This document shows, one piece after another, positions 54,840-59,589 of a stretch of 64,000 nt of DNA. Every line of letters begins with the position of its first letter. The first letter of the stretch is position 1. Where the stretch lies: sequence record OL631479.1. One strand, written 5' to 3'. The notes beneath the pieces were generated by a model that ran no database searches, was not told the origin of the DNA, and saw only the letters and a list, made by a program, of their open reading frames with translations. Source of the stretch: Escherichia phage ECML-10. Position numbers and translations under genes: made by a program.

Positions 54840-55699
54840 AAGTTGTAAAACGGGACGGTAGAGAAGAGTTCTATAACGGAATTAAGGTGATCAAGGCGGC
54901 AGAGTCCGCCTTATTTGAGTCTGGACATACTGAAGAAGAAGCTTACCGGATCGCCTGCGAGGTTAATGAAGTTGTTGCTAACAATCTACCAACCGACCAG
55001 TGCACGATCTCTGTAAAAAATATCCATATCCTTGTTGAAGACGCTCTTATGGATATGGGTTTAAAATGTGCAGCCAGAGAATACATCCAGTATAGGCAGA
55101 CAAGAGATAATAACAGAGAGGCAGGTGGAAAACTGCTCGCAGATATTAGTGGCTTCTTGGATCGCACTTGTGATGAATTTACAAAAGAAAACGCAAATAA
55201 GCCTACCAATCATGTACACACTCATCGTGACCTGCTTGCAGGCATCCTTAGCAAACACCTTGCATCAACACAGATCCTGCCAGACCGTGTCTCAGAAGAG
55301 CACAATAAAGGCTTCATCCATGTGCATGATCTTGACTACTTGATCAGTCCGTTAACAAACTGTTGTTTGGTAAATTATCCAGATATGTTGGAAAACGGAT
55401 TCAACATTGGTAACGCCCATGTCAGTAAGCCGAAGTCAATAGGGGTTGCAACAACAATCCTTAGCCAAATCTCTAGTGCGGTAGCTAGTGCTCAATATGG
55501 GGGTCAGACTATGAGCCATATTGATCATTATCTGGCACAGTATGCTGAAGCGACCTATGAGAAGAACCTTAAATTTTGCCAGGAACATTGGTTGCCAGAT
55601 GCTGAGACTGTTGCAATGCAAATGACAGATAAAGACGTATTTGACAGTATGCAGACATTACTTTATCAAATCAACACGTTAACCTCTGTCAACGGTTAA
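54836..55699 (+). CDS. nrdD: Anaerobic ribonucleotide reductase NrdD, N-terminal part (putative exon 1)
   Basis: ATP-cone-like N-terminus MKVVKRDGREEFYNGIKV; ORF ends at in-frame stop presumably inside intron. Confidence 0.75.
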   Translation: MKVVKRDGREEFYNGIKVIKAAESALFESGHTEEEAYRIACEVNEVVANNLPTDQCTISVKNIHILVEDALMDMGLKCAAREYIQYRQTRDNNREAGGKLLADISGFLDRTCDEFTKENANKPTNHVHTHRDLLAGILSKHLASTQILPDRVSEEHNKGFIHVHDLDYLISPLTNCCLVNYPDMLENGFNIGNAHVSKPKSIGVATTILSQISSAVASAQYGGQTMSHIDHYLAQYAEATYEKNLKFCQEHWLPDAETVAMQMTDKDVFDSMQTLLYQINTLTSVNG

Positions 55700-56547
55700 C
55701 AAACTGGCCGTTGTAAAACTCTCCTAACCTCATAAGAGGGGTCGGTAAATCCGGCTAACGGGGAACGCTAAGGCGAAAGCTATGCCAATCCCGTGACTAG
55801 TTCTTACAGGAGTTGGAACGGTTGTAACGACTAACGAAAGGCAGAGATGCTTGACAAACATTTCTGAACCAAGTAGTGTAGGGGTTAGTTGAAATACTAA
55901 CTTCGAAATGGAGAGGCTCTATGAAAAAGATCATTCTTAATGGTGAAGAATCAAACTATGTGATTGATGAGGTTGGAAACGTATACGGAAAACGTGGAAT
56001 GCTACACCCAATATTGTGGGGAGGTTATGGAAAAGGTAACAAGCATGTTAAACGCCGTTATATGTACTCTTTCAACCACAAAGGTAAAAAGATTCGAATC
56101 CAAACCTCAAGGATTGTTGCCTTGTATTGTTTGCCGGATGTCCCAGAAGACCCTGAAAACTGGGAAGTGAATCATAAAGATGGCAATACATTGAATGATC
56201 ATCCGTCTAACCTAGAGTGGGTTTTGCCGGAAGATAATAAGAGACATGCTTTCCGAACAGGACTTTGTCCAGGTAAGTGCTATAGGAAAGTGCAGGCATA
56301 CAAAGGGAAAACCTTGGTGGGTGAATATCCTTCACTCTATGCCTGTGCAAAAGCCTTAAATTTGAACGTAGGTAACGTTCATAGGGCTATCGAAGGAAAT
56401 GCCGAAGGTAAGCATCTCACAATAAAGGGTTATTATCTTATTGAAGTAGAGTAAGAGATAGTCTGGCCCTGTGGAAACACAGGGAGGAGACAGCAGACTC
56501 CATTCATCACATTAAGTTTAGGACTGGATACCTCGGTCTTTGGTAGA
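55700..56547 (+). other. Putative group I intron in nrdD carrying an HNH ORF
   Basis: ~850 bp between the two nrdD parts with ~220 nt structured leader before the HNH ORF. Boundaries approximate. Confidence 0.5.
55921..56454 (+). CDS. HNH homing endonuclease (intron-encoded)
   Basis: 177 aa; HNH motif VNHKDGNTLNDHPSNLEWVLPEDN. Confidence 0.8.
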   Translation: MKKIILNGEESNYVIDEVGNVYGKRGMLHPILWGGYGKGNKHVKRRYMYSFNHKGKKIRIQTSRIVALYCLPDVPEDPENWEVNHKDGNTLNDHPSNLEWVLPEDNKRHAFRTGLCPGKCYRKVQAYKGKTLVGEYPSLYACAKALNLNVGNVHRAIEGNAEGKHLTIKGYYLIEVE

Positions 56548-57756
56548 ATGATTACCAAAAACTACTTGAAAGTCCACAAAATGGGTCTTGGTGAAGAACG
56601 TATCACACCTGTGTTCCCTAAAGTGCTGTTCTTCCTAGAAGAGGGTGTCAACATGAACCCTGGAGATCCTAACTATGATTTGAAACGATTAGCTCTGGAA
56701 TGCTCTGCAGAGCGGATTTATCCTGACTTTGTTTCTGTTCCACTAAATCGTAAAGTGACAGGCTCGACAGATGGTAAAGTAACGAGCATGGGTTGCCGGA
56801 GTTTTCTTAGCAAATACAATGACTTGGAAACAGGCGAGGAGAAATACCTTGGTAGATTTAACTTAGGCGTTGTTAGCCTTAACCTGCCAATGATTGCGGC
56901 AAAAGCTAAGACGGAAGGTGTTGATTTCTTTGCCGTTCTTGACGAGTATCTGGATTTGGCATATGAAGCTCACCTTGTAAGGGTTAACCGTCTGAAAGGC
57001 ACCAAAGCAGGGCAGAACCCTATCATGTGGTGTGAAGGCGCTCTTGCTCGCCTGGATCCTGAAGAGAGTATTGATAAACTCTTCTATGACGGGTACGCTT
57101 CCATCAGTATTGGGTATATTGGTGTGTATGAAACCTGTCAGATTTTGGGCAGGGAGGGTGACAAGGCTTTAGCTCTTGGAATACTTCAGCACATGAGAGA
57201 TGCTTGTGAGCGATACAAGAAGGAAAGTAGACTAGCGTTTAGCTTGTACGGCACCCCTTCTGAGAGTCTATGCTATAAAGCTGCAACCTGTCTGGATCGT
57301 GAATATCCTGAAGTGTTGAAGCACGAGCATGAATATCTCACCAACAGTTTCCATCAGCCAGTATGGATCAATAGCTCTCCTTTTGATAAGTGGGAGTATG
57401 AGGAAGGTTTTGCTATGATCTCCTCTGGTGGCAACATCGGATACGTAGAGACACCAAATCTGAAAAACAACTTAGATGCTTTGGAAGCTCTTGTTGATTT
57501 CGGATATAAACACATTATGTATTTTGGTATCAACCAGCCTGTGGATAAATGTCTCAAGTGTGGTTTCTCTGGTGAGTTCAGTGCAACAGCTAAAGGCTTT
57601 GTATGCCCAGAGTGCGGAAACCATGAAGAGGGAACGATCAGCGTAATTCGACGTGTGTCTGGATACCTTTCCAGTCCTAACTCTCGTCCTTACAATAAAG
57701 GTAAGCAAGCGGAAGTTATCGAGCGAGTTAAGCACTACGGAAGTTGTGGTTGCTGA
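56548..57756 (+). CDS. nrdD: Anaerobic ribonucleotide reductase NrdD, C-terminal part (putative exon 2)
   Basis: Glycyl-radical motif RRVSGYLS near C-terminus; Zn-ribbon CLKCG...CPECG. Confidence 0.8.
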   Translation: MITKNYLKVHKMGLGEERITPVFPKVLFFLEEGVNMNPGDPNYDLKRLALECSAERIYPDFVSVPLNRKVTGSTDGKVTSMGCRSFLSKYNDLETGEEKYLGRFNLGVVSLNLPMIAAKAKTEGVDFFAVLDEYLDLAYEAHLVRVNRLKGTKAGQNPIMWCEGALARLDPEESIDKLFYDGYASISIGYIGVYETCQILGREGDKALALGILQHMRDACERYKKESRLAFSLYGTPSESLCYKAATCLDREYPEVLKHEHEYLTNSFHQPVWINSSPFDKWEYEEGFAMISSGGNIGYVETPNLKNNLDALEALVDFGYKHIMYFGINQPVDKCLKCGFSGEFSATAKGFVCPECGNHEEGTISVIRRVSGYLSSPNSRPYNKGKQAEVIERVKHYGSCGC

Positions 57757-57822
57757 TACTTGACAAAAGCCACAAGGATGTGGCACACTTAGTTCAAAGA
57801 TTAGAGCTAAGAAGGTTCAGCA

Positions 57823-58950
57823 GTGTCCAGAAAACTTACAACAGATGAGTTTATAAAGAGGGCAAAAGCAGTTCATGGAGATAAGTATGATTACTCTAAG
57901 GTTGAGTATGTAAATGCCTGCACCAAGGTTATAATTATCTGCCCATATCATGGAGAATTTGAACAAGCTACCCACCAACACCTTGCAGGACGAGGCTGCC
58001 GGGAATGTGGAAAGCTAAAAATGGCACAAAGCCACATTATACCACATAAGGAGTGGTTGAATGTTATCCAAGAGGTCAATCCTTATGTCGAAGTGATTGG
58101 AGAAATAATAAGCTGCAGAACAAAAGTGCCGTGCCGCTGCAAAATTTGCAGTCATGAATGGTCAGCAATGCCTTATCTTCTTAAACAAGGACATGGGTGC
58201 CCTAGATGCGGCAAGCTAAAATTCGCACAAAGCAGAGCTATAGCCCATACCGAGTGGGTCGAGGACATAACGAAGAAAAATACATATATTGAAATAGTAG
58301 AAAGGGTTAAAAATAGCGATACACCAGTATTGGCACGATGCAAAATTTGTAGTCATGAATGGTTAGCAAGACCATCCCATCTTAAACGAGGGCATGGGTG
58401 CCCTAGATGTAAAGGCAATGCAAAGAGATCCCATGTGGAATGGGTAGGGCATATAAAGGTTGTCAATCCAAGTATTAAAGTGCTTGGAAAAATTAAAAAC
58501 GGCAGTGCAAAAGTATTATGTAGGTGTAAGATTTGTGATTATGAATGGTCTCCTGCTCCTATTAGGCTCAAGCAAGGACATGGGTGCCCTAGATGTGCTA
58601 ACTACGGCTTTTTATCGTACAATCACGGCAAACTTTACATTATGGTTGATGACTTAGAAGTACCAACACTTATGAAGATCGGTATTAGCGTCAGTGTCGA
58701 AGAGAGAAAAGATAGGATATTGAAAAGTGCCAAAAGGGCAGGGGTAGGTATTTATGATCTCTACCTGGCGAAAACGTGGGAAGGATCAACTCAAAACATG
58801 GCAGATTTAGAAAAATCTGTGCATAAGGCCTTCAGCAAGTATAAAATAAACTTCCCTGTAAAATTTGATGGTAGCACAGAATTCTTCTACTACAGGCCTG
58901 AAGTGTTTGACACGGTGGAAGAAGTATACAGGAAGATTTGTGGTAAATGA
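57823..58950 (+). CDS. Zinc-finger repeat protein with C-terminal GIY-YIG/T5orf172-like domain (putative nuclease)
   Basis: Four ~60-aa repeats (C-x-C-K-I-C...HEW...GHGCPRC) also visible as nucleotide repeats; C-terminal KLYIMVDD...MKIGIS; GTG start. Confidence 0.35.
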   Translation: MSRKLTTDEFIKRAKAVHGDKYDYSKVEYVNACTKVIIICPYHGEFEQATHQHLAGRGCRECGKLKMAQSHIIPHKEWLNVIQEVNPYVEVIGEIISCRTKVPCRCKICSHEWSAMPYLLKQGHGCPRCGKLKFAQSRAIAHTEWVEDITKKNTYIEIVERVKNSDTPVLARCKICSHEWLARPSHLKRGHGCPRCKGNAKRSHVEWVGHIKVVNPSIKVLGKIKNGSAKVLCRCKICDYEWSPAPIRLKQGHGCPRCANYGFLSYNHGKLYIMVDDLEVPTLMKIGISVSVEERKDRILKSAKRAGVGIYDLYLAKTWEGSTQNMADLEKSVHKAFSKYKINFPVKFDGSTEFFYYRPEVFDTVEEVYRKICGK

Positions 58951-59002
58951 TCGTAGAAAGATATGCATATCTTAAATATGCTATTAACTAAGGAGGTTCA
59001 GT

Positions 59003-59119
59003 ATGTCATCGGGTATCTATAAAATCTGCAAGTGCGGTTGTCATTGTAATCTTCGTTGGTGCAAGGCACTGGACGATTTTATTTGGCATTGCCCTAAATG
59101 TGATGCGGAGTATCTATGA
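59003..59119 (+). CDS. Small Cys-rich zinc-ribbon-like protein (38 aa), not in ORF track
   Basis: RBS AAGGAGG 7 nt before ATG; MSSGIYKICKCGCHCNLRWCKALDDFIWHCPKCDAEYL; stop overlaps nrdG ATG. Confidence 0.4.
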   Translation: MSSGIYKICKCGCHCNLRWCKALDDFIWHCPKCDAEYL

Positions 59120-59589
59120 ACATTGCCGGATACACAGAAATATCTTACACCGAAGGGCCAGGTATTAGAACTGCCTTATGGGTATCTGGGTGCCCACACG
59201 CCTGCCCTGGTTGCTTTAATCAGGCATTTTGGTCAAAAGATAAAGGAAGAGAGTTCACTGAAGAAGACTTGCAAAAAATCTTGTCAGATTTAGATAACCC
59301 GTCTGTGTGCGGTATCTCTCTGCTGGGTGGAGAACCCTTAGCATACTATAATGAGCCAGATATTATTAACCTGATGGAGAAAATTAAGGAAAAATTTGGT
59401 GACAAGAAAACTATTCTTGTATATACTGGGTTCACATTTGACCATATCTCTAGCGATGTTCTTAAACTGGCTGATATCATCATTGACGGTAAGTATGTAA
59501 AAGATTTACCAACCAAGAAACCGTTCCGAGGTAGCGATAACCAAAGAATGTTTAAAAAAGTATCAGGCGGTTGGGTTCAGGTAGACTAG
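59116..59589 (+). CDS. nrdG: Anaerobic ribonucleotide reductase activating protein NrdG
   Basis: 157 aa; radical-SAM CxxxCxxC motif CPHACPGC. Confidence 0.8.
   Translation: MNIAGYTEISYTEGPGIRTALWVSGCPHACPGCFNQAFWSKDKGREFTEEDLQKILSDLDNPSVCGISLLGGEPLAYYNEPDIINLMEKIKEKFGDKKTILVYTGFTFDHISSDVLKLADIIIDGKYVKDLPTKKPFRGSDNQRMFKKVSGGWVQVD

Follow-up and report, generated by a model that had tools for sequence, protein, structure and literature searches.

A probable T5orf172-family homing endonuclease gene with a repeated zinc-module array between nrdD and nrdG of a Vequintavirus coliphage

Homing endonuclease genes of the T5orf172 family are known to combine a nuclease domain with small zinc-binding modules: 87% of them have CapR, DUF723, or DUF4379 fingers, many of them several, arranged as "beads on a string" (Barth, Dunham and Seed, 2023; PMC10448857). 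These genes contain degenerate nucleotide repeats, recombination of which changes copy number and swaps domains, and RNR genes are present in 33% of their gene neighborhoods (PMC10448857). In gp53, gp121, gp130, gp165, and gp174 of phage ICP1, and in the T5orf172 genes of other phages, the modules of the CapR, DUF723, or DUF4379 type are N-terminal and the T5orf172 domain is C-terminal, the same order as in the gene described here (Netter, 2021, PMC8096241; PMC10448857). Binding of DNA by CapR requires four cysteines (PMC8096241). In vitro cleavage of DNA is reported for the T5orf172 protein Odn and is abolished by the mutation E180A; Odn is the sole T5orf172 member named in the cited literature with both in vitro cleavage and a catalytic glutamate mutant (PMC8263062). 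The main text of PMC10448857 makes no mention of the genus Vequintavirus.

The gene that we describe lies in a window of 64,000 nucleotides, the whole stretch of DNA analyzed, from Escherichia phage ECML-10 (sequence record OL631479.1). Judged by its sequence, the phage is a Vequintavirus, that is, an rV5-like phage of E. coli, and 120 phage records match the flanks of the cassette that carries the gene with 90 to 99% identity. The gene is very probably a free-standing homing endonuclease gene of the T5orf172 family, located in the nrdD–nrdG intergenic region. Its parts and its surroundings are listed in Table 1.

Table 1. Coordinates of the gene, its modules and its flanking features in the window.
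Feature	Position	Strand	Details
nrdD exon 2, left flank	56493..57756	+	encodes glycyl-radical and Zn-ribbon region
Hairpin GCCACAAGGATGTGGC	57769..57784	+	just 3' of nrdD stop; left junction of cassette immediately 3' of hairpin
Cassette (absent from empty-site relatives)	57786..58990	+	blastn against EdH4 and HdK5: homology ends at 57785, resumes at 58991
Shine-Dalgarno-like AAGAAGG	57809..57815	+	GTG start 7 nt downstream
Probable homing endonuclease ORF (stop codon included)	57823..58950	+	375 aa, GTG start
Zn module 1, type A, DUF723-like	57823..58032 (aa 1-70)	+	HGDKYDYS..CPYHGEF..GRGCREC; Pfam DUF723 E 0.012, below cut-off
Zn module 2, type B (DUF4379/CapR)	58033..58233 (aa 71-137)	+	CRCKICSHEW..GHGCPRC; DUF4379 26.6 bits, CapR 24.5 bits, both above cut-offs
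Zn module 3, type B	58234..58428 (aa 138-202)	+	Pfam DUF4379 37.7 bits, CapR 27.4 bits; passes both cut-offs
Zn module 4, type B	58429..58608 (aa 203-262)	+	DUF4379 22.3 bits when scanned alone, just under cut-off of 24.5
Three degenerate 134-nt direct DNA repeats	58075-58208, 58276-58409, 58462-58595 (span 58075..58595)	+	repeat search
T5orf172 (GIY-YIG superfamily) nuclease domain, predicted	58609..58947 (aa 263-375)	+	invariant Y272, K285, G287, R295, E330, H334, E353
38-aa Cys-rich ORF (MSSGIYKICKCGCHCNLRWCKALDDFIWHCPKCDAEYL), right flank	59003..59119	+	overlaps nrdG start (ATGA); its ribosome-binding site is the right junction
nrdG (anaerobic RNR activase)	59116..59589	+	Pfam Fer4_12 E 8.6e-43, Radical_SAM

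The ORF is intergenic, has its own Shine-Dalgarno-like signal, and lies outside any intron or intein. Every minus-strand ORF over the same region is shorter than 60 aa, an Rfam scan gave no match overlapping the ORF, and the GC content at the cassette shows no compositional island. With tblastn, no paralog of the 375-aa protein was found elsewhere in the window. Junction alignments show that the leader and the GTG start are kept in the TP14, SophiaRose, and JEP1 alleles. A promoter scan remained at background level and predicted no promoter belonging to the ORF; therefore, the gene is probably transcribed by read-through from nrdD.

The encoded protein consists of four modules of 60 to 70 aa each, followed by a C-terminal domain of 113 aa. 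Pfam searches with the whole protein detected DUF4379 (E 3.3e-16, 59.7 bits), which Pfam describes as a "probable treble clef zinc finger", and the CapR homology domain (E 2.3e-12). Scanning each module separately confirmed the repeated zinc-finger modules that a preliminary description of this DNA had proposed, and resolved them into one DUF723-like module (type A) and modules of the DUF4379/CapR type (type B), an array written here as ABBB. The preliminary description had counted four copies of C-x-C-K-I-C..HEW..GHGCPRC. There are indeed four zinc modules, but the motif, CKIC-x-[HY]EW...GHGCPRC, is found by regular expression three times, in modules 2 to 4, and the array is one plus three. 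Modules 2 to 4 have pairwise identities of 52 to 58% (shuffle z 26 to 29), and module 1 bears a distant likeness to them (shuffle z 3.4 to 8.8). The putative zinc ligands, as read from the sequence, are C-x2-C..C-x2-C in modules 2 to 4 and C-x2-H..C-x2-C in module 1. The module cysteines are invariant or almost so across homologs, and in module 1 the residues V36, C40, G58, C59, and C62 are invariant in the 35 homologs aligned. A sequence search matched module 3 to the DUF4379 domain of mt-SAF33 (PDB 6sga_Fd, E 3.4e-4), the sole solved sequence relative being the DUF4379 domain of a trypanosome mitoribosomal assembly factor.

The C-terminal domain, where the stretch KLYIMVDD..MKIGIS..EFF had been singled out as GIY-YIG/T5orf172-like, matches Pfam T5orf172 (PF10544, GIY-YIG clan) with 43.6 bits against a cut-off of 20 (E 4.5e-11). 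This match extends over residues 272 to 372 and over profile positions 4 to 100 of 101, and the isolated domain scores 31.5 bits. Among the PHROGs, the 375-aa protein matches 559 ("HNH endonuclease", E 1e-75) and 681 ("endonuclease", E 1e-67). An AlphaFold model of the whole protein, calculated from 35 homologs, has a mean pLDDT of 86.5 and comprises four repeated helix-plus-hairpin units followed by a beta-beta-alpha-beta-alpha-beta-alpha domain. The model of this C-terminal domain, with a pLDDT of 93.6, is predicted to have the alpha/beta fold of GIY-YIG nucleases. The model places the residues that are invariant in the 35 homologs in beta1, beta2, helix 1, helix 2, and the final strand, with Y272 in beta1, K285 and G287 in beta2, R295 in helix 1, and E353 in the last strand, as expected for the arrangement GIY..YIG..R..E. 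By analogy with E180 of Odn and with I-TevI (PMC8263062), Y272, R295, and E353 are putative catalytic residues. The domain and structure searches that the preliminary description had recommended were run, and they yielded a predicted nuclease fold and conservation of modules 2 to 4 at the protein level. A Foldseek search of the PDB with the whole protein was uninformative, NCBIfam held no meaningful family for it, and alignment of the family profile to an approximate sequence of the I-TevI catalytic domain with hhalign returned nothing.

The repetition of the modules is also visible in the DNA. A 20-mer, GGACATGGGTGCCCTAGATG, had been reported to recur at ~58190, ~58390, and ~58575, and we find it at 58189, 58390 (with 1 mismatch), and 58576, where 0 matches were expected and none occurred in 100 shuffles. 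The direct repeats listed in Table 1 are 68 to 70% identical and in register, with spacings of 201 and 186 bp. All four modules had been described as visible as ~190-bp DNA repeats; the repeats are three 134-nt copies and represent only modules 2 to 4. Tandem Repeats Finder reported no array at the ORF because the copies, at this level of identity, are too divergent for it, and it is the repeat search and direct alignment that reveal them.

The limits of the cassette are set by comparison with EdH4 and HdK5, in which the break in homology indicates that a 1.2-kb cassette stands in place of ~22 bp. In EdH4, the ~22 bp at the cassette position are a short filler of unrelated sequence. The left junction is the same in 8 of the 8 occupied genomes where it was located (window included). 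The hairpin next to it is likewise common to the window and the seven other occupied genomes, is also present in both empty-site genomes that were aligned, and gave a terminator-like match solely on the minus strand. The six occupied genomes in which the right junction was located share its position at the ribosome-binding site of the 38-aa ORF, and the leader and trailer of the cassette are also common to several genomes. The placement of the gene between nrdD and nrdG in the preliminary description is correct, and the 38-aa ORF lies between these two genes as well. This small ORF is kept in both empty-site and cassette-bearing genomes and is variously mis-annotated as an RNR fragment.

Other insertions are present within nrdD. 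Compared with the intact nrdD of EdH4, the window gene is interrupted by a precise 797-bp insertion (55696-56492) that holds an HNH_3 / I-HmuI-NUMOD-like ORF (55921-56454) and a sub-threshold Rfam match to a group I intron (56197-56484, 27.7 bits, E 3.8e-4). The end of the 5' exon, CAACGGT, can pair with GCCGTTG just inside the insert to form a P1 helix whose splice site has a U.G pair, and the last base of the insert is G. With the intron match, the P1 pairing, and the terminal G, the insert has the appearance of a group I intron that carries an HNH homing endonuclease, and JEP1 and Bas51 annotate the nrdD insert as such. L014, a sister genome with the ABBB allele, does not have the 797-bp intron but has another insertion of ~770 bp (1209-1980, at window 56793/56803) with a 169-aa ORF. 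Because this insertion is at a different position in nrdD, there are at least two intron/endonuclease insertion sites in the nrdD of this phage group.

Occupancy of the nrdD–nrdG site was determined in a sample spread evenly over the Vequintavirus records (60 of 120, with 58 usable). The cassette was present in 13 genomes and missing from about 45, with the site contiguous and empty in ~35 and occupied by extra small ORFs only, as in HdK5, in ~10. Among related Vequintavirus genomes, the cassette is therefore polymorphic, present or absent, at one exact position flanked by conserved genes. This fixed intergenic site and the common junctions argue for the free-standing homing endonuclease that had been suggested when the gene was first noticed. 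Among the records that match the locus, 19 labeled as Campylobacter jejuni phages (GenBank MG065644-MG065690, 'Campylobacter phage', UNVERIFIED) are ~93 to 97% identical to E. coli Vequintavirus there and are classified as Vequintavirus; their host labels look doubtful.

Ten alleles at the nrdD–nrdG site have three or four modules each, in the arrays AAA, AAAA, ABA, AABA, AAB, and ABBB (window). Their T5orf172 parts are 76 to 89% identical in nucleotide sequence, and the overall protein identity of the site-mates to the window allele is 40 to 50%. In the GenBank phage collection, the protein has its best match at 60% identity across 78% of the query, and the ABBB allele was not found there. 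However, a protein with 99% identity (P0001) is encoded on six further contigs of 50 to 200 kb. The three of these that were read (135 to 139 kb) have an intact ABBB allele at the same site, with 8 to 9 nt and 2 aa differences, and no change in copy number within the ABBB allele was seen among the contigs read. A wider homolog search gave 2,784 matches, including proteins of unrelated phages and prophages, and among the best 120 homologs those that bear T5orf172 have two to seven modules, with BBBB the commonest array. The preliminary description had advised comparing repeat number among related phages, and the number does vary, both at this site and among these homologs. In the BFVD collection, 250 viral proteins resemble the 375-aa protein in structure, under the names T5orf172, CapR-homology, or treble-clef.

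Several further observations concern the alleles and their relatives. In the navn (L009, ~935-1080) and A140 (L004) alleles, a terminator-like hairpin with a T-run and a promoter-like element, TTGACT-N17-TATAGT, precede the cassette, and the nrdD C-terminus is different; the window allele has neither this hairpin nor the element. The B modules have their nearest relatives in lambdoid phages of the mEp type and in E. coli prophages, such as phage mEp021 (MH706966.1), which alone has nine matching places, and the E. coli prophage proteins P0028, P0031, and P0043. To judge from these sequence matches, temperate phages may be a reservoir of B modules. Many other strong homologs (P0008, P0010, P0026, P0027, P0045, P0079, and others) are ~420 to 655 aa long with six to eight type-A modules and, by a crude motif test, no T5orf172, and a few homologs with type-A arrays carry PF04480 (DUF559/Vsr-like endonuclease) instead. 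The same finger array thus seems to occur together with other nuclease domains, or without any.

The T5orf172 domain could also serve in a weapon, a domesticated nuclease kept because it cuts a competitor such as another phage, a satellite, or rival cassette alleles at the locus, and not for its own spread. ICP1 Odn sets the precedent, and such co-option of T5orf172 domains is known from ICP1 and is probable for some coliphages (PMC8263062, PMC10448857). The marked differences between the binding arrays found at this one locus would be in line with alleles directed against each other or against different haplotypes, and the ABBB allele is conserved in seven genomes (window included) and intact in those read. 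Even so, we consider this explanation unlikely. Proteins of the Odn type have a RepA_N domain that mimics the satellite initiator and not the zinc-finger array that is typical of homing endonuclease genes (PMC10448857), and the pattern of presence and absence at one fixed intergenic position is the one classically associated with homing endonuclease genes. A PADLOC search gave one marginal match alone (PDC-S57, E 0.0011), which leaves a reading of the gene as a defense system without support.

The flanking nrdD sequence was compared for traces of cassette movement. A divergent nrdD 3' tract, with ~34% nucleotide divergence that is largely synonymous, is present in 36 of the 120 Vequintavirus records. 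It occupies the part of nrdD that codes for the Zn-ribbon and glycyl-radical region (window 57597-57756), with a single left breakpoint, at window 57597, and right ends at three different positions (seen in L004, L005, L009, L010, and L011). In the sampled genomes the tract occurs in 10 of 13 that are occupied versus 7 of 44 that are unoccupied (Fisher p 8e-5, a value that ignores relatedness). This enrichment fits gene conversion around the cassette but is suggestive only, because the tract, which is also carried by some empty-site genomes, does not track allele type and because the window has the standard nrdD 3' haplotype, with flanks 99.5% identical to those of empty-site genomes. That identity means that a co-conversion signature is absent for the window allele. 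We rejected the tract as an allele-specific mark of immunity, since identical alleles are found with either haplotype (TP14 versus SophiaRose, nom versus WalterGehring) and the tract occurs in some empty genomes as well.

The missing co-conversion signature would be in keeping with an inactive relic, or with a protein that has lost cleavage and only binds DNA, for example a CapR-like regulator of nrdG or of the nrd operon. CapR is an example of such fingers working as a repressor in a protein that has no nuclease (PMC8096241), and the gene lies inside the operon, upstream of nrdG, with no predicted promoter of its own. However, the nuclease domain is full-length with a high-confidence model, all residues invariant in the family are intact, including the putative catalytic Y272, R295, and E353, and six of the eight substitutions relative to sister genomes are synonymous, which together make a relic or regulator very unlikely. 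Finally, although presence and absence alone do not give the direction of events, it is hardly credible that this is an ordinary core phage gene whose absences are deletions in some lineages and not a result of mobility, given that the empty state is the majority, contiguous, and marked by short unrelated filler, that the occupied genomes carry alleles with only 40 to 50% protein identity and shuffled modules, and that there are homologs in unrelated phages and prophages.

As the product of a homing endonuclease gene, the 375-aa protein would bind DNA, cleave it at a target site, and bring about homing. The four treble-clef zinc modules of ~60 to 70 aa, as beads on a string, would jointly recognize a long DNA site, as extrapolated from CapR, and the C-terminal T5orf172 domain with its GIY-YIG fold would cut near the recognized site, as extrapolated from Odn. 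nrdD exon 2 is a candidate location of this target site. In a mixed infection with a cassette-free relative, the break would be repaired from the cassette-bearing genome, and repair would transfer to the recipient both the cassette and adjoining nrd sequence of variable length. Recombination between the degenerate repeats in the module-coding DNA could reshuffle the number and type of modules and thereby change specificity.

The allelic series at the nrdD–nrdG site, in which one nuclease at one site is joined to at least six arrays, allows a more speculative proposal. It might record ongoing retargeting or competition between cassette alleles, with ABBB having arisen by import of B modules from prophage-type BBBB endonucleases, although we regard this as rather unlikely. 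Competing alleles could displace one another or could chase variants of the target site, such as the two nrdD 3' haplotypes. Should each module type correspond in a simple way to a DNA subsite, the series would offer a natural key to a modular recognition code for this finger class. The locus is well sampled among coliphages, with ~120 genomes and at least six array variants, and the published idea of retargeting by repeat-mediated shuffling of modules is experimentally accessible here in E. coli. For annotation, the gene and its site-mates, mostly recorded as 'hypothetical protein', can be named T5orf172-family homing endonucleases. Phylogenies of rV5-like phages should allow for a recombination-prone nrd region, as the authors of the BASEL collection have already advised (PMC8594841).

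The closest counterparts of the gene are its site-mates bas51_0186 of Bas51 WalterGehring ('putative homing endonuclease') and SophiaRose_117 ('putative GIY-YIG nuclease family protein'), as named in GenBank, which have the same junctions and the same T5orf172 domain as the window gene but the arrays AAB and AAAA, respectively, in place of ABBB. The ICP1-type genes likewise have repeat-encoded modules, the number of which is altered by recombination, and essential genes, including those for RNR, as neighbors. The gene described here differs from them in its Vequintavirus lineage, its array of one DUF723-like and three DUF4379/CapR modules, and its nrdD–nrdG site. PLE CapR, the capsid-operon repressor of a Vibrio cholerae phage satellite, has a homologous finger, and modules 2 and 3 pass the Pfam cut-off for CapR. 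In contrast to the window protein, with its four modules and nuclease domain, PLE CapR is a transcriptional repressor with a single module and no nuclease. ICP1 Odn (Gp88, origin-directed nuclease) has the T5orf172 domain in common with the window protein, but it has a RepA_N DNA-binding domain and is an anti-satellite weapon, not the product of a homing endonuclease gene. In I-TevI and SegA-G of phage T4 the nuclease is N-terminal, whereas in the window protein it is C-terminal and its second motif reads KIG and not YIG. The preliminary description had called the repeated array unusual, but repeated zinc-finger arrays are what the literature reports as normal for homing endonuclease genes of the T5orf172 family (PMC10448857). 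The gene is a typical representative of this known class of selfish genes and not a new kind of system, and what is specific to it is the phage lineage, the insertion site, and the ABBB array.
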